Below are positions 10,694 to 34,849 of a stretch of DNA of 34,849 bases, one piece after another. The number at the start of each line of letters is the position of its first letter. Position 1 is the stretch's first letter. The notes under the pieces are model-generated. The model worked only from the letters and a program-made list of their open reading frames with translations, ran no database searches and was not told the DNA's origin. This DNA comes from a virus (lineage: Duplodnaviria > Heunggongvirae > Uroviricota > Caudoviricetes): IMG/VR virus record IMGVR_UViG_3300024268_000010; one strand, 5' to 3'. The position numbers and the translations under genes are program-made.

Positions 10694-10695
10694 TC

Positions 10696-11871: not shown

Positions 11872-11893
11872 ATTAAAAAGAGGTGTAATAATT

Positions 11894-12427: not shown

Positions 12428-12438
12428 GGTGATTCATT

Positions 12439-12564: not shown

Positions 12565-12580
12565 TAAAAGGAGTGGTAAT

Positions 12581-12979: not shown

Positions 12980-12992
12980 GGTGGTGATTGAT

Positions 12993-16751: not shown

Positions 16752-16766
16752 AAAGAGGGAAATTAT

Positions 16767-16985: not shown

Positions 16986-16987
16986 GA

Positions 16988-17491: not shown

Positions 17492-17524
17492 ACAATACAA
17501 AATGATTAAAAGGAGACAATTATT

Positions 17525-18109
17525 ATGAAAATTGCAGAATTTATTGAAGGCTTTAAAAGCAAAAATATTATGAATACAAAACTTGTTCCTGATGCCGTTC
17601 AGCAATATATTAAACAGGAACTTGAAATTAAAGATTATGTTCCTTTTGCAGAAAAGCGTGAGCTTTGTGCAAAGGTTTTAAATGCTTGTAACACAAAAAC
17701 AAGCAGTGGACTTGTAAAAGTGGATAGTGTTAGTCGATATATCATCTTTACAATTTCTATTATTTCTAAATATTCAAATCTTGAATTTTCTTCTGGTAAA
17801 GACAGCGAACTTGATTCCTTGGATGAATACGATATGCTCTGTCAAGCAGATTTGTTAAATCCTATTTTGGATGTTATTGGTGACGAATATGCGACTTGCA
17901 ATAACATTCTTAATATGATGATGGAAGATATCGTCGCAAACAACAACACGGTTGAAAATGTTGTTGGCAATGTGCTTGGCAAATTAGGTGTATCTATTGA
18001 CAACCTCATCGATATTATTGCCGAAAAAGTGGAGGAACTTGAACTGGATTTGAGCCAGATTGATATAGATAAATATAAGGGGTTAATTGAATTATTTACT
18101 AAAAAGTAA
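17525..18109 (+). CDS. Acidic helical hypothetical protein, possibly a tail assembly chaperone, 194 aa
   Basis: RBS AAGGAG. Acidic and helical, two genes upstream of the tape measure gene. The chaperone role is positional inference only. Confidence 0.6.
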   Translation: MKIAEFIEGFKSKNIMNTKLVPDAVQQYIKQELEIKDYVPFAEKRELCAKVLNACNTKTSSGLVKVDSVSRYIIFTISIISKYSNLEFSSGKDSELDSLDEYDMLCQADLLNPILDVIGDEYATCNNILNMMMEDIVANNNTVENVVGNVLGKLGVSIDNLIDIIAEKVEELELDLSQIDIDKYKGLIELFTKK

Positions 18110-18135
18110 GTTTTTAAGTTTGGAGGAGTTGTACT

Positions 18136-18711
18136 ATGAAGGATTTTACTGACGAATTAGTTGATTTGATTATGAAAAACGAAAAAGAAAATCTTGATAC
18201 AATAATGAAAAAAGTTACACAAAAAATCACAGCAGACTTTACAAGAGAGACATATAGATTGCTTGATGAATATTATGATAATTACACCCCTATTCGTTAT
18301 GTAAGAGTGTATGGTGGCAAACGAAAGTTGCGTACTAAAAGTGGTACAACCAAAAGAAAACCAAGACCTGGTCAAGTGAGCTTGCATGCTGCTATTACAC
18401 GTGGTGGAGTGGACGCACCGGCAATAGCTGTAGACTATGGTGACTATGACAGTGGATATACAGGTGGAATTGTATTAGACCCAATGAAGTTCAAAGAAAA
18501 TGGCATGCGGCACATTGGTAAGGGCAAAGACTTTACAGAATGGAATATTGTTGAGAATTTTATGTTTGCTGGGGATGGTGGATATGGTGATATTCGTTCT
18601 TATATCGACTACAATTATCCGTCCGCAGATACAGAACTTGGACGTTTTATGGATTCATATGGTTCTACCGTTGATAAATATTATAAAGCTGCTTTAAAAG
18701 GTATTCAATGA
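18136..18711 (+). CDS. Hypothetical virion morphogenesis protein (possibly a distant HK97 gp10-like tail-completion protein), 191 aa
   Basis: RBS GGAGGAG. Helical N-terminus followed by YYDNYTPIRYVR (Y.P..Y.R), directly upstream of the tape measure gene. Family call is weak. Confidence 0.55.
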   Translation: MKDFTDELVDLIMKNEKENLDTIMKKVTQKITADFTRETYRLLDEYYDNYTPIRYVRVYGGKRKLRTKSGTTKRKPRPGQVSLHAAITRGGVDAPAIAVDYGDYDSGYTGGIVLDPMKFKENGMRHIGKGKDFTEWNIVENFMFAGDGGYGDIRSYIDYNYPSADTELGRFMDSYGSTVDKYYKAALKGIQ

Positions 18712-18728
18712 AAGGAGGGTGAACAATT

Positions 18729-21700
18729 ATGGCAGATAAAAAATTACAATATATAATTGAAATGATTGCTGATGATCAAAAAATCAGAAAGCAGATGAAG
18801 TCTTGGGACTGGGAAGATATAATGGGCACGAAAGGCAAGGATTTTGGTGAATTCGTTGCCGATAGTGTAAAGAATAGCAGAGATGATGTTAAAAATGCAT
18901 TCAAGGGGCTTAACATTGATTGGACACAGATTCTTGGTACTAAAGAGATTGCACAACTTGAACAGTCTCTTACAAGAGCATTAGCAAAAAAGAGAGATAT
19001 GATTACTGGTTTTATCGCCAGTGGAGATACTGCTAATATTGAGCGCACAGTAGATATTGTTGCAGAACTTGGCAATGAATTTAAATCTCTTGGATCAAAT
19101 TTTGATGTGAAGTCTTTGGTTCGAGGCATGGGTGCACTTGCAGATGTTCTTGCCCCTTTTGTAAAGGAAACCAAGAAGATTAAAGATGTTTTTAGTAATT
19201 TGTTTAACACATTTGATGGAAAAAAGGGCGAACTTGTTCCTACATTTAATTTTGAAGGTGTGGGCAAACAAGTTGATGCAGAGGTTAAAAAGATTCAAGA
19301 TTCATTGAATCAACTATCAGATGAGAGTAAAAAAATTAAAATAAATGTTAATGCGAGTTCAACCTTATCTCAATTTAATAATGAAATAGAAAAAATTTCT
19401 AATGCGATTGATAAGACTGAGGATAGAATAGATGAGTTAATAGAGGCTTCCCAGAACGCCGTTAAGGGTTCTGATGTAGAACGCAAAGCAAATATTGATT
19501 TGGCAAATACATATCTAGAGCGTGCAACACAATATAAAAAATTGATACAAATGAAAAAAATATCTAAATCTGTAACAGATCAGGTATTGTATGATCTTGG
19601 AATGGATGAAGATATCAAGGTGATGTTTGAGGAATCACGAGATAATGCTAAAAAAATATTAGGTACATTATTACATAGCGACAAACGTATGGAGAATACT
19701 GTTGGTATTGGTGTAACCGCTCCTTCTGCGGATGATATTATTAGAGCAGTGAACACGGCAATTGATGAAGTTAACACAAAGGCAAAGGCGTTACACACAA
19801 TTAAACTCAAAGTTGACGATCAATTAGAACCTATTTCTGGAGACAAAATTATTGACTCATTTCAAGTTACAAAAAACAAAAAGACATTAGAAAAAGAAAT
19901 TGCTAATATTATTAACGAAATTACAGAACTGGATAAAAAAAGGTTAAGTATTCAAAACGAAATAGATAACGCACCCAAAAAAGATGAAACAAGAGTTGGC
20001 ATGGTCAACGAAATTACTAACAAAATTGCGTCTTTGGAACAATTAAAAAAAGCCAATGAGGATTTACTTGCTGATGCTGATAATCTAGCAGTGCAATACG
20101 CATTGTCTACTATAATGAATGGTTATAACGCTATTGAAAAAGTTGTAGATAACAGACAGAATAAAATTTTAGATAAAACTGATGAATGGCGCAAGAGAAT
20201 GATTGGCGCAATGCAAATCGACAAAGCGGATGTAAATATTCAACTTGGCTTTGACAAAGGTCTTGAAGCCTCTACGGACGCCTTATATAACTATTTGCAA
20301 CAATATTTTGAAGAGAATCAAATTGAATTACATATTAACAAGGATGCATTTGTAAAAGAAATTAAAGATGCAGTTGCAAACGGTGGTGTTTCTGTAGGCT
20401 CTATTGGTGGTGGTACTGTTGATTTAAATCCTCAAACGCTTAAAAATGCAATTGCTGAAGGGCTTATTGCGGCTTTAACGGGAGATTTTATACCTAATGG
20501 CGTAAGCAGTACAACGACACAACCCGCTGAAACATCTAGTGCTAAAAAGCAGAAACTTGTTTATTTAGACCCAAGCAGTTCATATATGAAGCATATGACG
20601 GAAGTAGTGCGTACATTTGCCGAATATACACAAAAAGACAATGCACAGACTGCCAAGATAAAAGCCTTCTTTGACAGAAAAATCATTGATGTTGATGAAA
20701 ATGGCAAGCCGGTAGGTGTGCAAATCGACAAATATGCTGACGCAACTTCAATGGATGTTGCGGACATGTTAGCTAAATTGATTGAACGGCATGGTGTTAC
20801 TTTGCTAGATGATTTTGACAATTTGTTAAAAGATGTTGGCAAAAATAGAATTGCACAAAACTTCCGTAGTGATTTAGCAGAGTTACTACATACTCAAAAT
20901 ATTGGTCAGAGAACACTAACAGACGAAGAAAGACGTGTGCATTCCATTGAAGTATTTAAGGATTTAGTTGACAAATCTAAAATGCTTGAGCCGTTTAATG
21001 TTAAAAATCCTAAATGGAAAGTGTCAGAAATAGCAGATTTTGATAAAATATTTACTATGGCTACAAACGGTCTGGATCAGACAAGTGCAGAGTATAAAAA
21101 TATTGTTCAAAGTTTTGAGAGATTGAAAACAGTCATTACCAATGAAGATGGTTTAGACGGTGACGCTCAAAAAGAAAGATTACAAACTGCAGTTTTAGAG
21201 TTCAAGGAAAGCATTCATGAAACCTATGATACTCTTACAAAGTATGTTAATGCATTCGAAATGGATGTTTTTGTTAAGGGTGCAAAAAAGCCTTATCGTG
21301 TATCTAGTCGTTATTCTACACTTAGAGCTAATGACGCAGTAGGAGATGATGATACCAAACTGTCAGATGTCCGTATTTATAAAGATATTAATACAGCCGC
21401 ATTGGGCACAACAGCAAGAAATCAAGAATTAAAGATGCTGTATACACCTGGTGCAAAATTTGATTTAACTGTTCCTTATCCTGATAGAACCGATATTTTG
21501 TACAAAGATACAAGTATAGATGAGTTTAAGGAAGCAGAGAATACGGTCAAGCCATGGAAAGATGAGTCCACTGCTGTTGAACGAGCTGAAAAACGTGCAA
21601 AGAAGGCGACTGATTCACTTAAAAATGCAGAAGAAAGAGCTGCCAAGTTAGCAGAAACAGAAACATCCATTCAAAAGCAAATTACAGAAAAGAACACACA

Positions 21701-24700
21701 AAAAGCAGAATTAGAAAAAGATATTGCAATAAACCAAGAAAATATTGCAAAATTAAATACAAATTCTAGAAAAATTGCCGGTGCTCGTACAAGGCTTAAT
21801 AATCGTCAGACTGCATTGAGTGCGGCAGAACAAGCAAAAAAAGAAGCAGAATTAAACAAGAAAATTATCGAAGGCACTGATTTTTCTGAAAGAGATACGG
21901 AGCTTTCAGATATTTTTCAAAAACGTGCAAAATATGAAGCTTGGATGAAAAATCCAGAAGAGTACGATGATGACATTGTTGACACACTATATGATGGCAT
22001 CATGAAATCGTATAGATCTTACAAAGAGGCTGCAGAAAAAGAATTAAATAGATTAAACAATGTAATCACTAATACACCACAAAAATTAAGTGAACTGCGA
22101 GCAAAGGCTTCTGTCGCAACTCAAAATGGAGATTTAAAGGCACTGCAAAAGATTGAAGAGGAAATACGACAGGCACAACAAAATCAAAATGCGGCTTCTA
22201 AATCATTGCCGTCCACGCAAGCAGAATACAATAAATATACTCAGTTATTATCTGAAATATATGCAAAAATTGCAAGAGATACTGAAGCAGATAAAGCCGC
22301 TTTTGACTCAGATTTTCAAGCATACATATCAAAACAATTAAAAGAGTTGGATGTGCGAGAAGCAAACATTGGCGCTGACCCTCGTGAGGAAGCGGAAGTT
22401 CGTTTATCCAAAGCAGAAAAAGATTATCAAAAGGCACAAAAAGAATATGATAAAGTTGCTTCTTCTGAAGAAGGAAAAGCTGTCGTAGAGATAGATAGAT
22501 TAAAAGCAGAAAATCAAACTCTCCAAAAGCAAATTGACGATTTGTCAACCGAGTTAACAGAAGCAGAGGCAAAACAAAATAAAATTGCTGATGAAAAAAA
22601 GTCTGGTACAACTAGTGAAAGGCTTTTACAGTCAACTCAGCGTAGTGAAATTGATACATTATTTAAGGACGCAGATAACTTACAGCAGAAGATTCAAAAG
22701 AGCAAGCAAGAAGCAGAAGCTGTCAATAAAATGGTTCAAGATATTATGGATGGTGAAACATATCAGCATCCAAAATATAATATCAAGCACACAAAAAAGA
22801 ATCAAGAAAAAGTTGATAAACATAGTGCAATACTACGCAGATCGTTGTATTTAAAGTCTGTTGCCAATGGCACTGCCCAAACTGACGACAAGATTCCAAC
22901 AAATCTTACTCCTAAAATGTCAAATGCAATTGATGAATTAGCTAATTCAAGAGAAATAATTAAGCGTTTATTTAAAACAGAAAGTCAAAGTAAACTTAAA
23001 GAACAAGTAGAGGCAATTCAAACTGCAAGAAAAAATCAAGATGGATTAAATAAACAGGATAGTGCAAAAAGGCTTCAGGCAGCAATTGCAGAGTTTCAAA
23101 ATAGTATTAAAGATTTTGGTTTAGATAAATTTAAAACCGATGACGCGTTGCGTGCAGAAATAAAAGACAGATTTGCTAGAAGTGAAAGTAGTGAAAATCA
23201 ATTACATCCAATTGTTCAAGAATTTTATAATAAAATTTTGAAAAATGGAAAACAGGTTGCAACTGAATGGCTTCAAACGACCTTGGAATCTGTTGTTGAT
23301 GATAAATCTAAGTACTCTAATGAGTTGAAAGGTTTAGCACAAAAAGATACCGAATGGATGGAAAATTTCAAACCAGAACTTCAAAATGCACAACAACATT
23401 TAAAAGAATCGTTCCAAAAACAGGTTAAAATTTGGGCAGAATCCATTCGAAAAAAAATTGCATTAATTGATAAAGGCAATCTCAAGACAGAAGAGAAGGC
23501 CCTTGCTATTAAAGAAATTGAAGAATTATTTACTTTAATTGACAAGGCAAGCGCTGCATACACTAGTGAATTCAGAGGTGAAGAATTTCTTTCTAAAAAG
23601 AGTGATTTAGATTATCAGCTTAAAGAAAAAAAAATTTCAAAATCTGATTATGTAGACAGATTTCGTCAACTTATAAAAGAAAATAACGAAATGTTGTTAA
23701 AAGAATTGCTTGGAGACAATATAGATTTAAATGGTAAAAAGCAAAAGTTTGTTTATTCTTCTTATTTAAGTCAAGATGAAACAAAACATACGAATGAGTT
23801 AAATGCAAATTATGAAAAGATTCTTGAAAATCTGAAACAGAAAGAACCGCTGTTGGTGACCCGTCAAGGGGAGCTTTTGAAAAATATTGAATTGGCTACT
23901 AAAGCGAATGATACTGAACAAGTAAAATCACTAGAAACACAATTAGACCAAATTAATCAAGAGCTTGCTGTTTATCAAAGCGCAAGTGTTGGTTCAGAAG
24001 AATATTTTTCACTAAAAGAACGTCAACAAACTTTACTTCAAGATATCCAAAAAGCTTCGATGTCCAATGACATAACAGATCGTCAAAAACTTGAACAACT
24101 TAATAAAACATTAGCAAGTGTTACTAATGGACTTGCAAAGTATCAAGATTATAAAGAGCGTATAGAACGATCTACTCTTACATCGTTGTTCTTTGATGAT
24201 GCCGAGTTTATGGCCCAATATCGGGATACTCTATCTGAAATTATTAAGATGGAACAACAGGTGGATTTGTCAAAAGCAAAAGGTGTTTCTAAAAAAGCTT
24301 TAAGTCAGCAATATCAAAATATTGACACCAAGCGTGCCGATTTAGATAATTTTGTTTATAATAGTTTACAGAACAAACAAAATGAACTTTTAGCGGACAA
24401 TATTCCATCTTTGTATAAGCATAAAGCAGAATTAGAAACACAAGCCACTTCGTTGAGTAATGCAATTACTGAGGCAAAAAATGCAGACAAGCCTTTTGAC
24501 GACTTGAGTGAACAACTGCAAGATGTTAACAAGAAAATCAGAGAAAACAACGCATCTATTGCGAAAACAGAATCATTATTAACCAATGTTAATAAACTCC
24601 TTACTCCATTAGAACTTAATCAACGCAGAGCAACAGATATGGACATAAGCGGCATTGCCTACAAAGCAGACGAAGCCGTAATGAATGTATATAATAAAAC

Positions 24701-27700
24701 GACACAAGAAGCAATTGAGTTAGAACAAAAATTGGCTTTAGCGAGAGCAAAAGGTGCTGATGTTGAAGAGGCCTTAAGTGCTCAACGCTCTCAGAAGCGA
24801 AAAAGAACAAATGCCCTTGAACGAGCACAACAAGAGCGTGAACAACGTGAATCAGAGAATAGTCCTCGTGTGCAAGCGTTAAGATATCTTACAAAAACCG
24901 AAGATGCTTATACTACGGCATTAGAAAAAAGAGCAACATTGAACCGTCGCATAAAGGTAAAAGAAGCACAAATAGACGATATTGAAAATGACCATAAGTA
25001 TTCTACTTCGTGGCAATATAAACGCCATCAACGTACAGTTAAAGATCGTTTGGTTAATGAATATGTTGGTTCTGAGCAATATCATAATGACAGAGCTGCT
25101 GGAATGGCAAATGTCGAAGAATCAATGAAAACATATCTCGAAGAATCTTTGACACCAGAGGCCGTTGAGCAAGTATTGTACCAGTTAAAACAGACACTCG
25201 GTAAGCGTGGCGACAAGATTGATGTAACATCGTTACAAGATATGTATCATGATATACTAAGGGACAGTGTTGAATATCAGCAGTATTTTGAAGATAGAAA
25301 ATTAGAATATCAAAAAATACTTGTTGCGAATGCGGGCACAATTGATACTGATGTGTCTGACTTGAATTTAGCTATCGATGCCATGCACAAGAGTCGTGAT
25401 GCCCTTGAAGCGGGAAAAGAAAGAATTGAACAAGAAAAACAAGCGAATATTGCTTTTATTAAATCTGCCTCAGCAAATGATTATGCTCCTTTGCAACAAG
25501 AGATGCAAAAGGTTGCCACAAGAGTAAATCTAAAATCTATGGTTTCTAGATTTAAAGATGTTGTTGCACAAAATCGTAGCAGAGAAGCAACTATCAACAA
25601 TCTTAAACACCAGGTGTTGCAAGCAGGTGGAAACCAAACAGAGGCTAATCATCTGGCAAAAGAGCTAAATGGCATCGGAAAGACCGCTCTGAAAGATGTG
25701 CACGCTTGGGCTAAGGAGTTTTTGCCTAAAATTTTTCTAACAACAGAGGAAGAATTTAGAAATCAGGCTCGTCAAAATCTAATTGCTAATGAAGAAAGAT
25801 ATGCACAAAGAGAAATTGGTGAATTACAAAGAGCATACACTAGAGATGAAAAAGAAGTAAGATCAATTTTTAACCGTGAAACAAATAAAGGTGCCGATTC
25901 TTTTATTAATAAATATTTAGGAACTTTGGTAGACGATTTAAAAGAAAGCGATTTTCAAGATGTGGCAAGTTCACAATTCAAGGAAATTGTCAGTACATTC
26001 AAAAACTTACTTCAAAAGAATGTTTATGATATTGTTTCAAATTATAGTAAAAGTTTGGTTGTTGAGCATGGTAAACTTGGTGGAATTGATATTCGTGCAG
26101 AAATTCGTCATGCATTATTACAAGAGTTAGACATCCTACAAAAACAGCAACCTGGTGTTGATGAAGATATTGCTCATATCGAAGCACAACGCAAGGCTGC
26201 CATGAAGTTTGGTAGTATTGGATATGGTGAAATTGCTGATACCGATGTGCTGAGAGAACAGGCAATACTGACAAGCAAACTTACGGCAGAAAAAGAAAAG
26301 CAAAAAGAACTAGAAACACAAATTGCAACACTTGAAAAGACCGAAGATTCTGAAGAAGAATTAGGTCGTCTTAACAAAGCGTTAGATGAGTCCAATAAAT
26401 CTATTGCAACCCTACAAATGCTTGTTGATAATCGTGATACTTTGTTAGAACTACAACATCAAGCAAAAGAAGACGAAAAGGCAGAGCAACAGTGGACTCC
26501 TGAAAAGCAAAAGCTGTGGTTAACAAATAAATTAGAAGTCGCAAAGGCAAATCTTGAAAATGCCGATGAGACTGTGCGTAAAGAAGCAGAACAACAAATT
26601 GTAAGATATACCGAATTGCTAAATAATCTTGAGGCAAAAGTTGCAACTGAAGAGGCAGAACGTCGGAAGGATTCTAGCCTTATCGGTGTTATGACTAAGG
26701 CTCTGAAAGATGCATTTGGTGGCAAAGGTGGTTTTGCATTAGACGCAACCGGTATTGCTTCTGAGGCTACATTATCTCAGATTTTGCAAGTGCTAAATGG
26801 CTTTATTGCAGCATTTGGTGGCAAAATTGTTCGAGATCCAGAAATGGAAAAGAAGCTTGCTAGGATGAGGGAGCTTGAGGCGAAGCGTGGGGTTGTTAGT
26901 GAAGCTAAGGTTAATAAAACGACTAGCGATAATACTAAGAAAACTAATGAGAAGAATCCTATTGCAGAAGAGATGATTAAACGCATTAAGGCAGAAGTCA
27001 AAGAAGAAAAGGATTTACCAAAGTTAATCAAAGCGCTTGTTGACGGAATTAAACCAGAGAATAAAGGCACAAAGGAAGATACCGAAGATAGATTTAGATT
27101 GCATAGGGCGTTTGCTGAATATAAAGAGCAGAATAAAAATATTCCCGGTGTTCCGACTTATAAGGATAATAAAGGTGAATTACAACATTCGTATAAGGAA
27201 CTTGCTAAACATCTTGGTGTCGAGGGTGCAGACCAGTTGCGAATTTATGAAAATAAGATTCATGAACTTGCCAACACTGGATTTGTTGAAGGTCAAAAAC
27301 AAGTTGAAAATGAAAAGAAGAAGACTGCCGAGACTGCTAAACAGGTTGAGAATGAGAATAAATCACAATCGCGATATGATAGAACATTTGATAAGTCACA
27401 AATTAGAAAACTGACATCTATGGATGATGTAAAGTGGTTTACGAGTGAGTATTTACAAGCCCAACAAAGAGTAAAAGATGCGTGGCGTATGCGTAATGCG
27501 AAGGTTGGTAAAGAGAAGCGTATCGAGGCAGAGGAATATATGTCGGCTCTTATGAAACAACTTGAGAGTCAAATGACCGAGGCCGCAAGAAAGAAATACG
27601 GTAGCGCTTATGAAGTACCAGCTTTTGAGAGTCTAAATATAGATAGTAATAAACGAATTGCTGATGCAATCGGACTGTCAGCCATAACACAAGAGTCTGA

Positions 27701-30700
27701 GAAACAACTTAAAAATGCACAAGCGACTACTGCCGAGACCGCTAAGCAGGTTGAGAATGAAAAGAGGGAGACTTCTACGGAAGCAATACTTAAACCTGTT
27801 CTAGATTCCAATAAAAAAGAAATTATTGCTGGCACCAGTATTAACGACTTAAAGTCTGGTCAAAAGGACGCTTATGCTAACTATATTGGAAAACAGGTCG
27901 GCAGTTATAAGACGTCTGATGCTATTTTCTCTGACGAAAAAGCTTTAAAAGCAAAAGTTCAAGAGTTGAAGGGCGTTATGTCAACTGCTGCAAAGGACTC
28001 CGAGGAGTACTTAAAGGCAATGGTTGAAATGAGTCGCCTTATTTCAACGTGGCGCAATGTGGTTAAAAAGACCAAACCAGAAATGTCAGATAATGCTAAG
28101 TGGCAAGAGTACTTGACTACTGGTGAAGGCAAGTTGTTTGATAAAGAAGAAGAAGTGCCTCTTGGTGGCATTACTTCAAGTAGTAAGGTTACTCTTAAGC
28201 AAACTGCAATGAGTCTTGGTACTAAAATTAGCGATAATGCTAAGAATGAATTGTTTGTGGCAAAAGAAGCAGTTAAACCAATACAGCAAAAAGCAGAAGC
28301 CAAAGAGCGTGAAGCGAATGCAGAAAAGAAAATTACAGAAGAAAAACAAAAACAAAAAGAAGTTTTTGAAACTAAAGGCTGGACCAATAAAGACAAGGCA
28401 GAATACGAAAAACTTGCTAAAGAAACCAAAGACTATGCTCCAAAAGTTGTTTTTGGTGAGGGTGGCACATTTGGTGGTCTTGCGTTAGATAGCACTCTTC
28501 AAGACATTCTTACAGTAATTAAAAAGATTAAGACTGAAGGTATTAAAAAAGGTGGAAGCGGTTCTAACAATACAGCTAAAAACAAAAATAAAACCGAAGC
28601 GGATTTAATTCGTGATAGAGCATTAAGTCAAGACGACACAGTAAAAGGTTTGGCTGCAGGTCGTGGTGATTTGTATGACAAGTACATGGCTGAGGTTGCC
28701 GCACTTAATAAAGCAGTTGATGATGCGAACACGGCAAAGAAGAATAAAAAGACACCAGATATGCGTGCTGTTAAAGCCGCTGCCGAAAAAGTATCTGCTT
28801 TAACTAAAAATATTTTAAGAGATACGGCACAATGGGATTATACCGTAAAACAAAGTGATATTGTTAAAGACTTTAAATTACCCAAGGGTCAACAGATGAC
28901 AAAGGAAATTATGCAAAACGCAATTAAGGGTACATTTGACCCAAAGACGGAGAAGTATGATTTTCTAAATTTTGATAATGGTAAATTGATATATCAACTT
29001 ACAGACCTTGGGGGTCATATTCGCACAGTAACTGCTGAATGGAATGATTTTAATCAACAGTTGGCCATTACATCTGACAAGTCTGTTGGTAAACTCGATC
29101 CACTTGTTGCAAAAGTAGATGAACTCAAAACCAAGTTTGAAAACGCAAAGTCTGTTGGGTACCTAAAGGGTGATGACAACAATCTAGCTGATTTTACCAA
29201 CAAACTTGCCGCTATTAGTCAGGCTACTACAATAGACGATGTTGAGCGTTTAAGACAAGAAGCAATTAATATAGGTGAAATTGTTAATAAAACGATCAGT
29301 CATAATAAGAGATTATTTGCCGGCACTGGTGCAAAGAAATCTGTTGATAATCAATATAATAAGATTATTGGTGCAAGACGAGCAAGTGGTCAAGATTTTG
29401 AGGATCAATTTGTAGATGATTCACCATTGTTTAATGAGTATTATAACGCATACAATCAACTGAACAAGGATTATCAAACATATGTTAATAATCATCAATT
29501 AAATGACCCAAAAATTCAACAGCAAATACAACAAGAAGCATCAAAGGTACAAACACTTGGCAAAAAATATCTATCTTCTGTTACACAGGCAGCAAAGTTA
29601 AAAGAATTGGCAGAACAGTCTGGCACTTATACTGATGTGAGAACGGGGAAAGAGCATCAACTTGGTGGGTGGCAGTCTATTACCGATGATGAAATTAAAA
29701 AGCTTGATACCACAATGCGTGATTATGCTACGTCTTTGTACGGTGCAAATCTTGAAAATATTAAGATTAACAAAACAACTCAAACGCTTACTGGCACTGT
29801 GAGAACAAGTAAAGATACTGTTGCTGATATTGTCGTTCAATATAATCAAGCAACTCAAGCTCTTTATGGATATAACAAACAAGAACGTGAATCTTTAACT
29901 GGATTGGCTGGCTTTATAAAAAGTATGAAAGGCAAAATGAAATCAATTTTGCAGTATACTACCAGTATCACATCTATTTATAGGGTGTTTGGTGAATTAA
30001 GACGAGGTATTCAGTATATCAGAGAAATCGATAGTGCATTAACAGAGTTAAAGAAAGTTACATCTGAAACCGAAAAAACTTATGATAAATTCTTACAAAC
30101 TGCGTCAAAGACAGCAGATATAGTTGGTAGCACTATTAAAGAATTAGTCAGTTCTACTGCGGATTGGGCCCGGATCGGCTACAGTCTTGAAGATGCTGCG
30201 ACTCTTGCTGAAACAACTGCTGTATTATTAAACGTTTCAGAATTCCAGAGCATTGAAGACGCAACAAGTGCATTGACGAGTACATTGCAGGCATTCTCTA
30301 TGACGGCAGAGACAAGTATGCGTGCAGTTGATGTACTTAACGAGGTCGGAAACAATTTTGCGATATCAAGTGATGGAATTGCAACCGCACTACAAGACTC
30401 TGCAAGTTCACTTGTAGCAGCAAACAACAGTTATGAAGAAGCAGTTGCGTTAATTGCTGCGGCAAATAGGGTCGTACAAGATCCGAACAGTGTAGGTGCC
30501 GCACTTCGTACAATTTCTCTTCGTTTACGAGGAACAAGTGCAAAAGAATTAGAAGAAGCAGGAGAAGACACTGATGGTGCTATTGAGTCTAAAAGTAAAC
30601 TGAGAAGCAAGGTTAAAGGGCTATCAGGGGTAGATATATTAACAGACACTGGTGCTTACAAGAGCACATATGAAATATTGCTTGACATTTCCAAAGTCTG

Positions 30701-33700
30701 GAAAGATATGAGTGATATTAACCAGGCAGCACTTCTTGAAATTTTAGCAGGTAAGACACGTTCAAATACTGCTGCTGCTATACTTTCAAACACAAAAGAT
30801 CTTAAAAAAGCTTATGAGCAAGCACTTGAAGCAGAAGGATCTGCTCTTGCTGAAAACGAAAAATATCTTGATTCTATTCAAGGACGTATTGACCTATTTA
30901 CTAACTCCGTTCAAACAATGTGGAACAATGCGTTAGATAGTGATGTTATAAAGTGGTTTGTAGACCTTGGTACAAAATTAATAAAAGCAGTTGACACTCT
31001 TGGTTTAATCCCAAGTATTTTGGCTACAATTGGCGCAACAAAAGGTATTACCAAACTATTTAAGTCATTTGATGTGTCAGGAGCAACCCTGCAATCTGCT
31101 TTAACATATATTAATTCACTTACAGTTGGCTTTCAAAAAAATGCCATTGCACAAACCGCCTCTAATGCTGTGATACTAAAACAAGCCGCAACCAATAAAC
31201 TATTAAATAGTTCTATTATACAGCGTTTAGCAACAGAGCAACTTGATGGGCAATTGAAAGAAGCAAATATGGCAAGAGAGGTTAAATTAGTTGCGTTAAA
31301 GCAAGCATTAGAATTGGCAGAAGAACAATACGCACAAGGTTTAATTGATGATATTGCTTTACAAACGGCCAAAAATGCTGTAGACGCGGCAAGCGTACCA
31401 ATTAATCTTAGTCAATTTTCAGCCACAACAATATTGGGTGCTGCATTTAATGGATTAGCGCTAAGTATTGCAAACGCAACCAAGGCAATGATTGCGTTTT
31501 TGTTTACCAACCCTGTTGGTTGGATGATTTTACTTGTTGGGGCTATCGTAGGTGGAGTTGCTGCATGGAACAAGTGGGGTGACACTACAGAAAATATTCA
31601 AAAGAAGCTTGAAGAACTTAAGACTGAAATTTCAGGAATAAGTTCGGAATTGGATTCTCTAAATTCTGAATTAAAAACTACGCAATCACGTATGGCGGAA
31701 TTACTTGCACTTGACAAATTGTCATTTACAGAAGAAGAAGAATTAAAAAATTTACAAAAAACCAATGACGCACTTGAAAGAAAAATATATTTGTTAGAGC
31801 AAGAACAAAAAAGGAAACAAAAGGACGCAGAGGATGAATTTGACAAACTAATGAGTGACGAGTTCACTCGTGGCACTAATCAAGCAGGTATGTCCACTAA
31901 TCTTACTGAAATACAGGCATTAGAAGCCATAAAACAGCAGCATAAAATAAACATTGGGGCTGAAAAAGAAGCAGAGGAAGCGTTGGTTGAAGCAGAACAA
32001 GGTGGCAATCAAAAAGAGATAAGAAAAGCCAAGAGAAAATTAAAAAAAGCAAAAAAGAGTGCACAACGAACACAAAAATATATAGACAATAAGCTTGAAG
32101 AATATACTACGAATGCTGATGGTATTGATTATGACACGGCAGATACTGAAACCAAAAAATATCTTGATTATGTTTATAATTTTGAAGATTGGGTTAATAT
32201 TATTAACGGAGACGATAGTGCACAAACTCACGCAATTAAAAGAATCTTCAATAAAGACGAATTCTCCACTGTATCAGACGAGATTGACGAATTAGTTGAA
32301 AAATTAAAGAAAAACCCAACAGACCAAACCGTTTTTGAAGACATTCGAAAACAGTGTCAATTAGCCGAAAAAGATTTGTTAGCTGTTGGCTTGTCTGTAG
32401 ACGAAGCGACCAGATATTTTACGCAACTTGGCTCAACATCTGGTTTTGGTGCTTTAGATAAGAAAGTAAAAGAACTTGACGAGGCGAGTAAGACTTTTGA
32501 GGAATTATTAACAAATCGTAAGGTTGACATAGATGGGGAAAGTATCGGTCTGACAGACCTGTTTGATAAAGAAGGCAAAATTATTCAAACAAAATTAAGT
32601 CAAATCTTTAAGAATACTGACGCTCAAACGCGAAAAGATATCACATCCATTCTTGAAGGATCGTATGATGATATTAAGAATGGTACGATGGATATAGGGT
32701 CGTTATTAACTAAGTTTTCATTTAAGGCAAGTAAGCAAATTATTAATATTGAAAAAGAATTATTTACTTCACACAATAAAGAACTGTTCCCAAACTTAAA
32801 AGATGAAATTTCTGGCATTATTGATACATTTGATGAACTTGCAACCGCGGTTGGCAGTGTAGTAGACGCTATGGATTTGCTTGATCAAGCAAGAGCAGAA
32901 GAAGCATATTCAGGTTCTGTATCACTAGAAACATTACAGAACTTAATGGCATATACAGATGATTATTCCAAACTTGTTTCAGTAGATGAAACTGGCGCTA
33001 TACATTTAGCAACCAATGCACAAGAAATTCTAATTCAAGAAAAATTAAATGCAATTAAAGCCAATGCGTTATTGGCATACGAAGAGGCAAATAAAGCATA
33101 TCAGGAGGCTTTGGCTGCAAAAACGAGTGTGAGTGCCGCAGACACAATTAAAAATATGCTAATTCCTGTTATTGATAGTGTATCTGGTGGTTTATCATTT
33201 TTAGGTAGTTTATGGACGAGTGTGGGTGAGGCATGGTCTGATGGATTTGGTGGAAAAACATTTAATCTTAGCGAAGCAATTAATAATGCGCAATCTGCAT
33301 ATAACAGTACAGTTAGTAGCCGACAAAATGACCGTGAGACAGAAAGTGAAACAACTTTAACACAAGCAGAAGAGGCTCTTGAGAAGGCAGAGGCAAATTT
33401 AAGGATTGCAGAAAATTTAACCGCAGACAATATTAAAACCAGATCTGATTCTGGAACTGCTTCTGGTGGAAACGACACCAAAGATGACGTCGAAAACGAC
33501 GCCTTCCAGCGTGAAATGGACTATTGGGAAAATCGTATCGCTGCAAGCCAAGCAAGATACGAGCAAGTTCAAAATGAAATTGATCTTTTGGAAGCAAAAG
33601 GACAACGTGCTAGTGCAGATCATTATAAAAAGCAAATTGAATTAGAAGATGAACGCAGAAAGCTTCTTGAAAGCCAACGGGCAGCCGCTAAAAAATACTT

Positions 33701-34849
33701 GGATGACTTGGTTAACGCTGGTAAAGAAGGGTCAGAAGAGTGGTGGAATGCGGCAGAAATTCTCAATGACATTGAAAATGAACTTGATGGTATTATTAAA
33801 AATGTTTGGGACTTATATGACGCTATTGCAGAGTTGAACAAAGAACTCTCAGAAGAAACTCATGAACGAATTTCAAATCTCGTAACCGACTTAGGAAACA
33901 TAAGAGATATACTTTCTTATGAGGATATGTTTGACGAAGAAGGTCATTTTACAGAAGCAGGTGTAGCAAATATTGCAACATATGTTGATGAAATTGCTAG
34001 ATACAAAGATGGTATTCAACAGGTTGATAAAGAGCTTAGTTCACTTGGAACATGGGAATCGTTTAGTCAAAAGAATAAACACCACTTAGATCTTGTTCAA
34101 TCTGATATTGATATTTCAAAAGCATACAATGGTAATGAGGAATATTATAAGGGATATGGAATTAAATCCGCCGAAGAATATAAAGCATTTACCGAGTTTC
34201 TTGCAAAAGGAATAACGTCTGAACAAGAATTTTATGACGAAATGATTAGGTTAACAGACCAACGAGATGATTATACAAAGGGCATTAAAGAATCTGAAAA
34301 AGCCGTTGTTGAAATGTATGAAAATCAAATCGACGCAGTAGAAGATTATACTAGTAAACTTGTAGATAGCTACAATGATTATATTGATAGTGTTAAAGAA
34401 GCGTTGGATGCCGAAAGAGAACTATACGACTTTAAGAAAAATATTGAAAGCCAAACGAAAAACATTTCGTCGCTAGAAAGACGCATATCCGCTTTGTCTG
34501 GAAGTACTGCGGCAGAAGATATAGCGGAAAGAAGAAAACTTGAGGCTGAACTTGCAGAAGCAAAAGAGGGTATTAATGACACATATCGTGATAATGCTTT
34601 GGACGCTCAACAAAATGCACTTGATAAAGAAGCGCAGGCATACGAGGAAACGATGAATCGGTATGTTGAAGGTTTGCGTAACACATTAAAAGAAGCCACA
34701 ATAGACATGACGGCATTCGTTAATACAATTGCTGGCAATGTTGTCGCAAATGCTGATACTGTATATGATCAATATACAAAAACAGGTGTGTCATTAGATC
34801 AAACTTTGGTTCAGCCGTGGTTAGATGCAAAAGCAGAAATTGAAGCTTT
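18729..34849 (+). CDS. Giant tail tape measure protein, at least 5,373 aa (3'-partial)
   Basis: ATG 18729 behind RBS AAGGAGGGTG (MADKKLQYIIEMIADD...). The same frame reads open in every block translated by hand (about 18.7-21.7, 22.6-23.7, 26.7-28.6, 30.0-31.6 kb and the end, ...DQTLVQPWLDAKAEIEA), and the ORF track lists no terminated ORF in this frame. TP901/PhageMin_Tail-type core at about 30006-30960 (IREIDSALTELKKV...WARIGYS...VLNEVGNNFAISS..IA.ALQ.SASSL...GAALRTISLRL...AGK...N), then hydrophobic segments (TNPVGWMILLVGAIVGGVAAW). Confidence 0.9.
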   Translation, partial: MADKKLQYIIEMIADDQKIRKQMKSWDWEDIMGTKGKDFGEFVADSVKNSRDDVKNAFKGLNIDWTQILGTKEIAQLEQSLTRALAKKRDMITGFIASGDTANIERTVDIVAELGNEFKSLGSNFDVKSLVRGMGALADVLAPFVKETKKIKDVFSNLFNTFDGKKGELVPTFNFEGVGKQVDAEVKKIQDSLNQLSDESKKIKINVNASSTLSQFNNEIEKISNAIDKTEDRIDELIEASQNAVKGSDVERKANIDLANTYLERATQYKKLIQMKKISKSVTDQVLYDLGMDEDIKVMFEESRDNAKKILGTLLHSDKRMENTVGIGVTAPSADDIIRAVNTAIDEVNTKAKALHTIKLKVDDQLEPISGDKIIDSFQVTKNKKTLEKEIANIINEITELDKKRLSIQNEIDNAPKKDETRVGMVNEITNKIASLEQLKKANEDLLADADNLAVQYALSTIMNGYNAIEKVVDNRQNKILDKTDEWRKRMIGAMQIDKADVNIQLGFDKGLEASTDALYNYLQQYFEENQIELHINKDAFVKEIKDAVANGGVSVGSIGGGTVDLNPQTLKNAIAEGLIAALTGDFIPNGVSSTTTQPAETSSAKKQKLVYLDPSSSYMKHMTEVVRTFAEYTQKDNAQTAKIKAFFDRKIIDVDENGKPVGVQIDKYADATSMDVADMLAKLIERHGVTLLDDFDNLLKDVGKNRIAQNFRSDLAELLHTQNIGQRTLTDEERRVHSIEVFKDLVDKSKMLEPFNVKNPKWKVSEIADFDKIFTMATNGLDQTSAEYKNIVQSFERLKTVITNEDGLDGDAQKERLQTAVLEFKESIHETYDTLTKYVNAFEMDVFVKGAKKPYRVSSRYSTLRANDAVGDDDTKLSDVRIYKDINTAALGTTARNQELKMLYTPGAKFDLTVPYPDRTDILYKDTSIDEFKEAENTVKPWKDESTAVERAEKRAKKATDSLKNAEERAAKLAETETSIQKQITEKNTQKAELEKDIAINQENIAKLNTNSRKIAGARTRLNNRQTALSAAEQAKKEAELNKKIIEGTDFSERDTELSDIFQKRAKYEAWMKNPEEYDDDIVDTLYDGIMKSYRSYKEAAEKELNRLNNVITNTPQKLSELRAKASVATQNGDLKALQKIEEEIRQAQQNQNAASKSLPSTQAEYNKYTQLLSEIYAKIARDTEADKAAFDSDFQAYISKQLKELDVREANIGADPREEAEVRLSKAEKDYQKAQKEYDKVASSEEGKAVVEIDRLKAENQTLQKQIDDLSTELTEAEAKQNKIADEKKSGTTSERLLQSTQRSEIDTLFKDADNLQQKIQKSKQEAEAVNKMVQDIMDGETYQHPKYNIKHTKKNQEKVDKHSAILRRSLYLKSVANGTAQTDDKIPTNLTPKMSNAIDELANSREIIKRLFKTESQSKLKEQVEAIQTARKNQDGLNKQDSAKRLQAAIAEFQNSIKDFGLDKFKTDDALRAEIKDRFARSESSENQLHPIVQEFYNKILKNGKQVATEWLQTTLESVVDDKSKYSNELKGLAQKDTEWMENFKPELQNAQQHLKESFQKQVKIWAESIRKKIALIDKGNLKTEEKALAIKEIEELFTLIDKASAAYTSEFRGEEFLSKKSDLDYQLKEKKISKSDYVDRFRQLIKENNEMLLKELLGDNIDLNGKKQKFVYSSYLSQDETKHTNELNANYEKILENLKQKEPLLVTRQGELLKNIELATKANDTEQVKSLETQLDQINQELAVYQSASVGSEEYFSLKERQQTLLQDIQKASMSNDITDRQKLEQLNKTLASVTNGLAKYQDYKERIERSTLTSLFFDDAEFMAQYRDTLSEIIKMEQQVDLSKAKGVSKKALSQQYQNIDTKRADLDNFVYNSLQNKQNELLADNIPSLYKHKAELETQATSLSNAITEAKNADKPFDDLSEQLQDVNKKIRENNASIAKTESLLTNVNKLLTPLELNQRRATDMDISGIAYKADEAVMNVYNKTTQEAIELEQKLALARAKGADVEEALSAQRSQKRKRTNALERAQQEREQRESENSPRVQALRYLTKTEDAYTTALEKRATLNRRIKVKEAQIDDIENDHKYSTSWQYKRHQRTVKDRLVNEYVGSEQYHNDRAAGMANVEESMKTYLEESLTPEAVEQVLYQLKQTLGKRGDKIDVTSLQDMYHDILRDSVEYQQYFEDRKLEYQKILVANAGTIDTDVSDLNLAIDAMHKSRDALEAGKERIEQEKQANIAFIKSASANDYAPLQQEMQKVATRVNLKSMVSRFKDVVAQNRSREATINNLKHQVLQAGGNQTEANHLAKELNGIGKTALKDVHAWAKEFLPKIFLTTEEEFRNQARQNLIANEERYAQREIGELQRAYTRDEKEVRSIFNRETNKGADSFINKYLGTLVDDLKESDFQDVASSQFKEIVSTFKNLLQKNVYDIVSNYSKSLVVEHGKLGGIDIRAEIRHALLQELDILQKQQPGVDEDIAHIEAQRKAAMKFGSIGYGEIADTDVLREQAILTSKLTAEKEKQKELETQIATLEKTEDSEEELGRLNKALDESNKSIATLQMLVDNRDTLLELQHQAKEDEKAEQQWTPEKQKLWLTNKLEVAKANLENADETVRKEAEQQIVRYTELLNNLEAKVATEEAERRKDSSLIGVMTKALKDAFGGKGGFALDATGIASEATLSQILQVLNGFIAAFGGKIVRDPEMEKKLARMRELEAKRGVVSEAKVNKTTSDNTKKTNEKNPIAEEMIKRIKAEVKEEKDLPKLIKALVDGIKPENKGTKEDTEDRFRLHRAFAEYKEQNKNIPGVPTYKDNKGELQHSYKELAKHLGVEGADQLRIYENKIHELANTGFVEGQKQVENEKKKTAETAKQVENENKSQSRYDRTFDKSQIRKLTSMDDVKWFTSEYLQAQQRVKDAWRMRNAKVGKEKRIEAEEYMSALMKQLESQMTEAARKKYGSAYEVPAFESLNIDSNKRIADAIGLSAITQESEKQLKNAQATTAETAKQVENEKRETSTEAILKPVLDSNKKEIIAGTSINDLKSGQKDAYANYIGKQVGSYKTSDAIFSDEKALKAKVQELKGVMSTAAKDSEEYLKAMVEMSRLISTWRNVVKKTKPEMSDNAKWQEYLTTGEGKLFDKEEEVPLGGITSSSKVTLKQTAMSLGTKISDNAKNELFVAKEAVKPIQQKAEAKEREANAEKKITEEKQKQKEVFETKGWTNKDKAEYEKLAKETKDYAPKVVFGEGGTFGGLALDSTLQDILTVIKKIKTEGIKKGGSGSNNTAKNKNKTEADLIRDRALSQDDTVKGLAAGRGDLYDKYMAEVAALNKAVDDANTAKKNKKTPDMRAVKAAAEKVSALTKNILRDTAQWDYTVKQSDIVKDFKLPKGQQMTKEIMQNAIKGTFDPKTEKYDFLNFDNGKLIYQLTDLGGHIRTVTAEWNDFNQQLAITSDKSVGKLDPLVAKVDELKTKFENAKSVGYLKGDDNNLADFTNKLAAISQATTIDDVERLRQEAINIGEIVNKTISHNKRLFAGTGAKKSVDNQYNKIIGARRASGQDFEDQFVDDSPLFNEYYNAYNQLNKDYQTYVNNHQLNDPKIQQQIQQEASKVQTLGKKYLSSVTQAAKLKELAEQSGTYTDVRTGKEHQLGGWQSITDDEIKKLDTTMRDYATSLYGANLENIKINKTTQTLTGTVRTSKDTVADIVVQYNQATQALYGYNKQERESLTGLAGFIKSMKGKMKSILQYTTSITSIYRVFGELRRGIQYIREIDSALTELKKVTSETEKTYDKFLQTASKTADIVGSTIKELVSSTADWARIGYSLEDAATLAETTAVLLNVSEFQSIEDATSALTSTLQAFSMTAETSMRAVDVLNEVGNNFAISSDGIATALQDSASSLVAANNSYEEAVALIAAANRVVQDPNSVGAALRTISLRLRGTSAKELEEAGEDTDGAIESKSKLRSKVKGLSGVDILTDTGAYKSTYEILLDISKVWKDMSDINQAALLEILAGKTRSNTAAAILSNTKDLKKAYEQALEAEGSALAENEKYLDSIQGRIDLFTNSVQTMWNNALDSDVIKWFVDLGTKLIKAVDTLGLIPSILATIGATKGITKLFKSFDVSGATLQSALTYINSLTVGFQKNAIAQTASNAVILKQAATNKLLNSSIIQRLATEQLDGQLKEANMAREVKLVALKQALELAEEQYAQGLIDDIALQTAKNAVDAASVPINLSQFSATTILGAAFNGLALSIANATKAMIAFLFTNPVGWMILLVGAIVGGVAAWNKWGDTTENIQKKLEELKTEISGISSELDSLNSELKTTQSRMAELLALDKLSFTEEEELKNLQKTNDALERKIYLLEQEQKRKQKDAEDEFDKLMSDEFTRGTNQAGMSTNLTEIQALEAIKQQHKINIGAEKEAEEALVEAEQGGNQKEIRKAKRKLKKAKKSAQRTQKYIDNKLEEYTTNADGIDYDTADTETKKYLDYVYNFEDWVNIINGDDSAQTHAIKRIFNKDEFSTVSDEIDELVEKLKKNPTDQTVFEDIRKQCQLAEKDLLAVGLSVDEATRYFTQLGSTSGFGALDKKVKELDEASKTFEELLTNRKVDIDGESIGLTDLFDKEGKIIQTKLSQIFKNTDAQTRKDITSILEGSYDDIKNGTMDIGSLLTKFSFKASKQIINIEKELFTSHNKELFPNLKDEISGIIDTFDELATAVGSVVDAMDLLDQARAEEAYSGSVSLETLQNLMAYTDDYSKLVSVDETGAIHLATNAQEILIQEKLNAIKANALLAYEEANKAYQEALAAKTSVSAADTIKNMLIPVIDSVSGGLSFLGSLWTSVGEAWSDGFGGKTFNLSEAINNAQSAYNSTVSSRQNDRETESETTLTQAEEALEKAEANLRIAENLTADNIKTRSDSGTASGGNDTKDDVENDAFQREMDYWENRIAASQARYEQVQNEIDLLEAKGQRASADHYKKQIELEDERRKLLESQRAAAKKYLDDLVNAGKEGSEEWWNAAEILNDIENELDGIIKNVWDLYDAIAELNKELSEETHERISNLVTDLGNIRDILSYEDMFDEEGHFTEAGVANIATYVDEIARYKDGIQQVDKELSSLGTWESFSQKNKHHLDLVQSDIDISKAYNGNEEYYKGYGIKSAEEYKAFTEFLAKGITSEQEFYDEMIRLTDQRDDYTKGIKESEKAVVEMYENQIDAVEDYTSKLVDSYNDYIDSVKEALDAERELYDFKKNIESQTKNISSLERRISALSGSTAAEDIAERRKLEAELAEAKEGINDTYRDNALDAQQNALDKEAQAYEETMNRYVEGLRNTLKEATIDMTAFVNTIAGNVVANADTVYDQYTKTGVSLDQTLVQPWLDAKAEIEA
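27324..27760. repeat. Two 32-bp direct repeats (27324-27355, 27729-27760) encoding TAETAKQVENE inside the tape measure gene
   Basis: actgccgagactgctaaacaggttgagaatga vs actgccgagaccgctaagcaggttgagaatga: 30/32 identical, both mismatches synonymous, 405 nt apart (135 codons). Confidence 0.85.

Follow-up and report, generated by a model that had tools for sequence, protein, structure and literature searches.

The tape-measure mechanism of tail length control is textbook knowledge and is established in phages lambda, T5 and TP901-1, the tape measure protein (TMP) being a trimer in T5. Thermus phages with a 5,002-aa TMP have tails of nearly 1 micrometre, which have been treated as a thermophile curiosity. 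In SPbeta, the TMP YomI (approximately 2,285 aa, with lytic domains) is encoded beside YomN (PF27376). In T5, the TMP pb2 is cut after R1127 during morphogenesis, and the tail retains the fragment.

The 5,002-aa TMP of P23-45 has been termed giant and is fused to an RNA polymerase, structures of which (8H2M and 8H2N) have been deposited in the PDB; virions of this phage contain the full-size protein and possess an extraordinarily long tail (PMC10770324). Two further phages share the core of the TMP described here and have measured tails. Bacillus phage vB_BanS-Tsamsa is a 168.9-kb temperate siphovirus with a 3,123-aa TMP, detected as two bands (280 and 100 kDa), and a 440-nm tail (PMC3903500). 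Enterocloster phage PMBT24, whose host is a gut anaerobe, has a 1,508-aa TMP and a 238-nm tail, and in its relative CB457P1 the TMP gene consists of two ORFs (PMC11035940). Tsamsa has relatives of its own, including PBC2, Thrax3 and Thrax4.

The tape measure gene and its neighbourhood

Here, we describe a giant TMP gene in a phage genome (IMG/VR virus record IMGVR_UViG_3300024268_000010). The stretch of DNA analysed, hereafter the window, is 34,849 nucleotides long and corresponds to positions 94542-129390 within one contig of 174,761 bp; this genome has direct terminal repeats, and its completeness is rated at 100%. The genes most relevant to this analysis are as follows:

17525..18109, + strand: 194-aa ORF, upstream member of a pair of small genes preceding the TMP; candidate tail assembly chaperone from its position only
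18136..18711, + strand: 191-aa ORF adjoining the TMP and preceded by a ribosome-binding site of its own; putative chaperone by position only
18729..34849, + strand: TMP gene, codons 1-5,373 of 5,706 (ORF list, translation and family models)

In the ORF list, the TMP frame runs from an ATG over 5,373 codons (18729-34847, + strand) and is open at its 3′ end. An earlier sequence-only reading had reported a 16,121-nt frame without a stop, and translation of the window confirmed this, with zero stops throughout. Its remark that the gene was invisible to the ORF track holds insofar as the ORF exits the window, and nothing else lies behind it. Translation beyond the window, which it had proposed as a check, showed that the frame stays open up to a TGA at genome positions 130388-130390 (window-equivalent 35847-35849), 1,000 nt past the window end, so that the full TMP comprises 5,706 aa. 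With a G+C content of 36.6%, approximately 6.9% of random codons would be stops, which gives a stop-free stretch of 5,706 codons a probability of p ~1e-176 and excludes chance. The start position is fixed by an upstream in-frame stop 9 nt before it, by a AAAGGAGG ribosome-binding site 8 nt ahead of the ATG and by the alignment of relatives, whose TMPs begin aligning at residue 1.

The earlier assignment as a tape measure gene is borne out by family models, architecture and synteny. The protein scores 76 bits against PF10145 (PhageMin_Tail, cut-off 33.2) in Pfam and 95.3 bits against TIGR01760 (cut-off 28.8, aa 3754-4063) in NCBIfam, and matches five PHROGs (4211, 14917, 991, 28 and 167); PF10145 is found at one locus in the genome. 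The sheath family PF04984 has no match in the genome rated 100% complete, and by this criterion the phage presumably has a non-contractile tail. Downstream, the TMP gene is followed by one for a 318-aa tail protein with DUF6558/DUF6558_C, putatively Dit-like, and then by one for a putatively Tal-like minor tail protein of 1,375 aa (phrog_6211); next come a fibre gene and the gene for a DUF859 tail protein. The order of two small ORFs, TMP, DUF6558 protein, phrog_6211 protein, fibre and DUF859 protein is the same in three relatives. The tail tube and capsid proteins received no name from PHROGs, Pfam, NCBIfam or tblastn.

A lambda-type G/GT chaperone pair expressed by a programmed -1 frameshift was considered for the two small ORFs and rejected. 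The 191-aa ORF lies in the -1 frame relative to the 194-aa ORF, but it is open only from 18118, past the stop of the latter; as the frames do not overlap, such a frameshift is impossible here and the two are separate genes. In one relative, the equivalent of the 191-aa ORF matches YomN of SPbeta weakly, which recalls the placement of YomN beside YomI, whereas no YomN match was found for the 191-aa ORF of the window itself.

Architecture of the chain

The chain can be divided into the following regions:

18729..19208, + strand: N-terminal end module, aa 1-160, whose offset remains 0 even among distant members of the family
20046..21608, + strand: clade-specific conserved block, aa 440-960, with short helices and few strands, without known fold
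20382..20489, + strand: G-rich island 1, aa 552-587, conserved, with the pattern GG-phi-x-LD...TL-x-x-IL
21564..28598, + strand: fast-diverging long spacer, aa ~946-3290, helical where modelled (longest helix 64 residues)
26715..26828, + strand: G-rich island 2, aa 2663-2700, conserved
28461..28556, + strand: G-rich island 3, aa 3245-3276, conserved
28596..29918, + strand: pre-core module, aa ~3290-3730, confidently modelled as helices plus two small four-strand beta units
29988..30917, + strand: TP901-type core, aa 3754-4063 (TIGR01760, PF10145)
31482..31571, + strand: hydrophobic membrane-type segment, aa 4252-4281, the only TM-like segment in the chain
beyond the window, + strand: PG_binding_1 domain, aa 5488-5543 (Pfam)

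A conserved C-terminal end module also lies past the window edge, and approximately 1,100 aa of helix-rich sequence separate the membrane-type segment from PG_binding_1. The core is unusually distant from the N-terminus, its region in phrog_4211 starting at approximately profile position 440. The N-terminal end module presumably forms the part of the ruler nearest the head, and the spacer is proposed to be the ruler's main extension.

The whole TMP contains 1.3% Pro, and an amphipathic periodicity of 3.5-3.6 residues is present in all of its regions at 3-8 times the random expectation. An AlphaFold2 model of aa 1-1200, whose confidence is low (mean pLDDT 58), is approximately 75% helix, and from aa 946 onwards individual helices extend over as many as 64 residues; a model of aa 3150-3800 is helical apart from the two small beta units of the pre-core module (aa ~3378-3449 and ~3633-3721), a module for which no PDB fold match was obtained. 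The N-terminal extension of approximately 3,750 aa is thus predicted to be mostly helical, the helicity of aa 1200-3150 being judged from composition, periodicity and family searches only. A three-copy complex prediction for aa 946-1200 scored 0.00 and bears neither way on a trimer. The contribution of aa 440-960, the beta units and PG_binding_1 to length would differ from that of helix.

Relatives and length variation

At least 667 clusters with members longer than 3,138 aa share the TMP core. Among the 147 uninterrupted core-sharing TMPs retrieved, the median length is 5,316 aa and the maximum 6,300 aa, and 84 exceed 5,002 aa. This comparison, which had been suggested from the sequence alone, places the gene in a new light: its giant size is real, but it is not the lone oddity that it had seemed and is typical of a large undescribed phage group, in a family that counts hundreds of such genes. 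The order of N-terminal end, core and C-terminus is kept in relatives, whereas the spacer diverges beyond recognition and shifts in length by hundreds of residues, with offsets of -636 to +382 aa. Such a combination of conserved ends and a variable spacer favours a ruler.

In many relatives the TMP gene is distributed over split ORFs, as in CB457P1. One of them, L008, carries a 1.4-kb insert with a 307-aa ORF; the insert matches no intron family in Rfam and the ORF no Pfam family. Gene callers cut giant TMP genes at window ends or at insertions within the core, and annotators mislabel them, one nr record reading "minor tail protein", with the consequence that surveys of TMP length undercount giants.

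Among 50,697 deposited phages, neither window positions 1-20000 (megablast) nor TMP aa 1-2900 (tblastn) found a match. Several candidate kin were rejected. The 176-kb human faecal phage contig H16 (MT835469.1) has fragmented ORFs in the TMP region and a core only 44% identical, which does not support a sister relationship, and the "Jug phages" are unrelated 360-402-kb Bacteroides phages. P0078 has 3,123 aa like the Tsamsa TMP but is a different protein, without a match among the deposited phages.

The phage was sampled in animal faeces and in bovine metagenomes, with faecal samples that carry it at a depth of 30-50x, and among named TMP cores the nearest belong to Bacillota phages; for these reasons the earlier description of a mesophilic Firmicutes-type phage is reasonable. 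A search of 185,579 species genomes with TMP aa 3600-5706 yielded no confirmed relative, and therefore neither a prophage nor a clue to the host.

Comparison with described tape measure proteins

The claim that the protein is giant stands on its complete length of 5,706 aa, above the 5,002 aa of P23-45 (PMC10770324) and longer than the largest published TMP. Both TMPs are single chains that exceed 5,000 aa and come from long-tailed siphoviruses (the tail being predicted in the present case), with extra mass at the N-terminal side, membrane-type segments and a cell-wall-directed domain. However, the TMP of the window is 14% longer, belongs to a phage of approximately 175 kb from mesophilic gut/faecal samples rather than a hot spring, lacks the DFDGD/DxDxD motif and any detectable RNA polymerase, and carries PG_binding_1 where a metallopeptidase domain has been described for gp96. 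Since the Thermus TMP chain is partly enzyme, length alone is no proof of a pure ruler.

Tsamsa resembles the present phage as a siphovirus of approximately 170 kb with a TP901-type core 27-29% identical, but the TMP of the window is 1.8 times longer and its N-terminal 2,900 aa have no match there. The best-named core matches (32-34% identity) are the TMPs of PMBT24 and Brevibacillus phage Sundance, which are a quarter as large and have no counterpart to the long N-terminal extension.

Proposed ruler mechanism and predicted tail length

By analogy with lambda, T5 and TP901-1, we infer that the C-terminus of a TMP oligomer would be anchored in the tail-tip complex, formed with the Dit-like DUF6558 protein and the Tal-like 1,375-aa protein, and that tube subunits would assemble around the TMP as far as its N-terminus. 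As polymerisation would halt there, chain length would set tail length. Upon infection the TMP would be expelled, and its hydrophobic segment and peptidoglycan-binding domain may then act at the cell envelope.

Considering that the N-terminal ~3,750 aa appear free of payload and that the ends are fixed on either side of a spacer of variable length, the ruler probably comprises most of the chain or all of it. The two core-sharing phages with measured tails, PMBT24 and Tsamsa, give a calibration of 0.141-0.158 nm/aa, the lower value being that of the whole Tsamsa chain against its tail. By extrapolation, 5,706 aa would correspond to a tail of 805-900 nm (approximately 0.8-0.9 micrometre). The sequence-only reading had arrived at 780 nm from the truncated ORF, a value that the full length and the two-phage ratios revise to this range, and it rightly named the main caveat with its proviso "if the whole chain acts as ruler".

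Alternative explanations

The genome is metagenome-derived and the assemblies compared are Logan contigs, which raises the question of whether the long frame could be an assembly chimera or separate genes fused by sequencing error. We regard such an artefact as exceedingly improbable. Separate Logan assemblies of several runs agree across the whole TMP gene at even depth; contigs from two of the runs each cover 17000-34849 unbroken, with 0 differences and flat depth, identical fragments of the TMP region occur in a third sample, and the exact TMP protein is recorded on 11 contigs. The gene contains no Ns, no tandem repeats of note and no internal protein repeats by which an assembler might be misled, the 3-nt insertion in a variant from a bovine sample keeps the frame, and collinear genes of 4,000-6,300 aa are present in hundreds of relatives. 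Because the same sequence was obtained in independent assemblies, the TMP gene is not a chimera; an in-frame stop or an assembly chimera, either of which had been named as grounds for abandoning the giant gene, was looked for and neither was found in it. The analysis has shown a complete and intact 5,706-aa TMP of a complete 174.8-kb phage, and that the gene is real and encodes a TMP is next to certain. A different question is whether part of the N-terminal extension is an injected enzyme or host-takeover factor of unrecognised fold, aa 440-960 being the best candidate. The TMP-fused virion RNA polymerase (PMC10770324) provides a precedent, and the block is strongly conserved (48% mean column identity, 30 invariant columns) and unlike a plain coiled coil. 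However, a payload of this kind appears quite improbable, considering that the DxDxD motif is absent throughout the 5,706 aa, that Pfam, NCBIfam and PHROGs contain no enzyme family matching the TMP, that aa 1-3800 have no sequence match in the PDB, and that the models of aa 1-1200 and 3150-3800 have no Foldseek match at E ≤ 1e-3 in the PDB or BFVD. In the ESM Atlas, aa 440-960 retrieved just unnamed clusters, with scores reached by shuffled sequences too. The block has only 48 cluster representatives among 1.84 billion proteins and sits at approximately aa 360-1,030 in nearly all long proteins carrying it; it is never free-standing or in another context, and its short matches resemble fragments. 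A fused RNA polymerase of the P23-45 gp96 type was rejected for want of DxDxD, of the PDB sequence match and of a fold match for aa 1-1200.

The protein might also be a genuine TMP of which only part measures, the N-terminal extension being cleaved, folded back or in part compact; in that case the tail would be far shorter than 0.8 micrometre, and approximately 275-310 nm if only the 1,953 aa from the core to the C-terminus count. Several observations point in this direction: TMPs are often processed, as the two Tsamsa bands (PMC3903500) and the cleavage of T5 pb2 illustrate, which counts against a whole-chain ruler; processing or docking might take place at the three G-rich islands, which are small and strongly conserved and lie within the extension; the conserved modules at aa 440-960 and 3290-3730 look compact; and the core lies near the N-terminus in usual TP901-type TMPs. 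Nevertheless, we hold a partial ruler to be rather unlikely. In T5, cleavage occurs in morphogenesis and the fragment remains in the tail, P23-45 virions hold full-size TMP (PMC10770324), and PMBT24 and Tsamsa, with related cores and measured tails, fit whole-chain ratios. Moreover, a variable helix-rich spacer of approximately 11 kb (more than 6% of the genome) is kept in hundreds of relatives, and its discarding would be hard to explain. For T5, a cut site after R1127 has been described, but it yields no motif that could be carried over to other TMPs. On balance, we favour the reading that this is the intact TMP of a complete phage without a sheath gene, that most or all of it serves as ruler, and that the tail is approximately 0.8-0.9 micrometre long.

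Implications for gut phages

A TMP length on the Thermus scale or greater seems to be the rule throughout a large uncultured clade of animal-gut phages, in which the extra 3,750 aa are enzyme-free by search. A broader and more tentative reading, which we offer as a possibility, is that widespread undescribed gut-associated phages of approximately 150-175 kb have, as a rule, tails of 0.8-1 micrometre, with TMPs of approximately 5,300-5,700 to at least 6,300 aa and a new TMP architecture; in this architecture, an N-terminal module particular to the clade may be combined with a helical spacer of approximately 3,000 aa that evolves freely and is dotted with conserved G-rich islands for registration or processing. 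If so, gut-phage tails would equal or exceed those of the Thermus record holders at body temperature, and they would offer a natural range of lengths in which the measurement, assembly and stability of very long tails could be studied. Tails of 0.8-0.9 micrometre would rank with the longest of any known virus, which would raise the question of what purpose such reach serves in the gut, for instance with regard to thick capsules, mucus or cell aggregates, and hundreds of natural length variants with fixed ends would be available for testing how molecular rulers work.

Extent and integrity of the gene

No stop was found from the ATG at window position 18729 through the window's last full codon (5,373 codons), either in the ORF listing or in the translation. 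The window corresponds to positions 94542-129390 of one 174,761-bp contig, in which a TGA closes the frame 1,000 nt beyond the window, so that the whole tail tape measure protein (TMP), P0002 (locus L001), comprises 5,706 aa and its gene occupies 9.8% of the genome. The long open frame proposed from sequence alone was thereby borne out and completed. The start is secure, since an in-frame stop lies 9 nt upstream, a ribosome-binding site (AAAGGAGG) lies 8 nt ahead of the ATG, and the alignment of the relatives' TMPs begins at residue 1. Because a random frame at 36.6% G+C is expected to hit a stop approximately every 15 codons, an open run of 5,706 codons cannot be due to chance (~1e-176, calculated from G+C).

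An assembly or sequencing artefact as the source of the long frame was rejected on the evidence of continuity, depth, independent contigs, and repeats. The gene contains no Ns and just two trivial, two-copy DNA repeats, and no internal protein repeats were found in P0002. A chimera, which the sequence-only reading had named among the findings that would refute it, was looked for and is contradicted by Logan contigs from two runs (the source sample possibly among them), each of which spans 17000-34849 unbroken with 0 differences and flat depth (~48x and ~29x). Fragments identical to the TMP gene and spread across it were detected in another sample, and the exact P0002 sequence is recorded from 11 contigs, the longest of 176,947 bp. 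The genome record has 123-bp direct terminal repeats and a completeness rating of 100%. In addition, a bovine metagenome (run X8) contains a diverged variant with many substitutions, whose sole indel in the covered part is an in-frame 3-nt insertion (TGG) at window position 20404, suggesting that this phage group is also present in cattle.

Identity and gene neighbourhood

Judged by family models, P0002 can be placed firmly among tape measure proteins: it matches PF10145 (76 bits, cut-off 33.2), TIGR01760 'tape_meas_TP901' (95.3 bits, cut-off 28.8, aa 3754-4063), PG_binding_1 (35.8 bits, cut-off 23), and five PHROG families, all annotated as tail length tape measure protein. Since only one PF10145 locus and no match to the sheath family PF04984 were found in the genome, which is rated complete, a non-contractile tail is presumed.

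Genes around the TMP gene (window positions unless stated; L002 is another locus of the same genome)
6453-7640 and 10696-11871: structural-module proteins of 395 aa and 391 aa
12981-16751: fibre, 1,256 aa, whose C-terminal domain is a Peptidase_S74 intramolecular chaperone; placed ahead of the TMP block, not after the baseplate genes
16988-17491: RuvC-like Holliday junction resolvase (PF02075; phrog_159, 1770, 827), in the tail module between the fibre gene and two small ORFs
17525-18711: two small ORFs before the TMP gene, 194 aa and 191 aa
L002:13170-16192 (genome 143560-146582): tubulin-like (PhuZ/TubZ) gene and 646-aa serine integrase, a few kb past the tail genes

Upstream, the order runs from this fibre through the resolvase to the two small ORFs; downstream, the TMP gene is followed by a DUF6558 phage tail protein in the Dit position, a 1,375-aa minor tail protein in the Tal position, a 1,288-aa fibre, and a DUF859 tail protein. 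The same order flanks the giant TMP genes of three relatives and fits the TMP identity. Together with PF10145, TIGR01760, and the five PHROGs, this neighbourhood upholds the sequence-only assignment of a giant tape measure gene. In one relative (L005), a 1,323-aa counterpart of the 1,256-aa fibre and a RuvC gene occupy the same places, the position of the resolvase thus being conserved. The 194-aa and 191-aa ORFs have no family match; the latter lies in the -1 frame relative to the former, but without overlap between the two frames the ORFs lack the usual G/GT frameshift layout. The 395-aa and 391-aa structural proteins belong to no Pfam, NCBIfam, or PHROG family and have no, or almost no, relatives detected among 50,697 deposited phages, and these searches assigned no name to the capsid and tube proteins of the lineage.

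Anatomy of the chain

In P0002 the TP901-type core is unusually placed: ~3,750 aa precede it, whereas the equivalent region of phrog_4211 begins near profile position 440. In the closest precedent, the 5,002-aa TMP of Thermus phage P23-45, the initial ~1,200 aa form an active virion RNA polymerase bearing a DFDGD motif (PMC10770324); because of this payload, the N-terminal extension of P0002 was checked for one as well. Unlike the P23-45 protein, P0002 lacks a DxDxD motif throughout. It has no enzyme family match in Pfam, NCBIfam, or PHROGs, aa 1-3800 have no sequence match in PDB, and neither of two AlphaFold2 models (aa 1-1200 and aa 3150-3800) matched a fold in PDB or BFVD at E<=1e-3. No sign of a payload was found in the extension.

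The chain is poor in proline (1.3%) and rich in helix formers all along. In each region, 17-42% of windows show a hydrophobic periodicity (3.5-3.6 residues) above the 95th percentile of shuffled sequences. The low-confidence model of aa 1-1200 (pLDDT 58) is ~75% helix; a conserved stretch at ~aa 610-890 is better defined, and from aa 946 on helices run unbroken for as many as 64 residues. The model of aa 3150-3800 (pLDDT 72; 80-90 across aa ~3290-3730) comprises helices and two small four-strand beta units.

Features within the chain
P0002 aa 4252-4281: hydrophobic segment, C-terminal to the core
window 20382-20489, 26715-26828, 28461-28556: three short G-rich islands, pattern GG-phi-x-LD...TL-x-x-IL

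Past the hydrophobic segment follow ~1,100 helix-rich aa, the peptidoglycan-binding domain, and a conserved C-terminal end. The G-rich islands are nearly unchanged in relatives whose flanks have diverged to ~40% identity, and could be processing sites or chaperone/tube docking points.

Predicted tail length

Two phages with a related core have measured tails: Enterocloster phage PMBT24 (1,508-aa TMP, 238 nm, 0.158 nm/aa) and Bacillus phage Tsamsa (3,123-aa TMP, 440 nm, 0.141 nm/aa). Applied to 5,706 aa, these ratios would predict a tail of 805-900 nm. If only the part from core to C-terminus measured the tail, its length would be ~275-310 nm. TMP processing is common: the Tsamsa TMP runs as two bands and T5 pb2 is cleaved, but the cleaved T5 fragment remains in the tail, whose lumen holds the TMP as a trimer. 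The sequence-only assumption that the whole chain acts as a ruler is favoured here, although it is known to fail in part for the Thermus precedent P23-45.

A family of giant tape measure proteins

A search with words from P0002 aa 1-5000, restricted to proteins of 3,138-9,986 aa, retrieved 66 relatives 3,150-6,136 aa in length, and many of these lie on 150-177-kb contigs; its core-focused version under the same restriction gave 667 or more clusters at E<=1e-10. Of 65 relatives, 40-59 share the core (aa 3600-4100) and the last 800 aa; only 7-15 share aa 1-2900. The alignments are collinear. Even for distant members (21-24% identity) the offset at the N-terminal end is 0, and both core and C-terminus are retained; the stretch between has diverged beyond recognition and differs in length by -636 to +382 residues. 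Such fixed ends and a middle of free length are what would be expected of a ruler. When the conserved block aa 440-960 was used in an exhaustive profile search, only 48 cluster representatives among 1.84 billion were found, the block lying at ~aa 360-1,030 in nearly all long proteins found to carry it.

Of 188 core-bearing relatives that were retrieved, 41 have a TMP gene interrupted within the PF10145 core. In relative L008 (IMGVR_UViG_3300045988_147080; L008:4220-17668), the first ORF (2,235 aa) ends just past the core and is followed by a 1.4-kb insert with an unrelated 307-aa ORF, after which a second ORF (1,770 aa) picks up at the counterpart of P0002 aa 4009 (KTRSNTAAAILSNT); no interruption is present at this site in the window's gene. 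The insert has no Rfam intron or Pfam match, and an intron, a homing-endonuclease cassette, or something else are candidates. TMP lengths called from genomes with split genes are underestimates.

The retrieved set includes 147 uninterrupted proteins (those with over 1,000 aa beyond the core), with a median of 5,316 aa and a maximum of 6,300 aa; 84 are longer than 5,002 aa and 16 at least as long as P0002. One core-sharing relative in NCBI nr is titled 'MAG TPA: minor tail protein [Bacteriophage sp.]', some bear the JGI label 'TP901 family phage tail tape measure protein', and no description of the family was found in open-access text. The interpretation as a giant TMP thus stands, but not as a singular oddity: P0002 typifies a large, as yet undescribed family and is a new, record-range example of an already known kind of protein.
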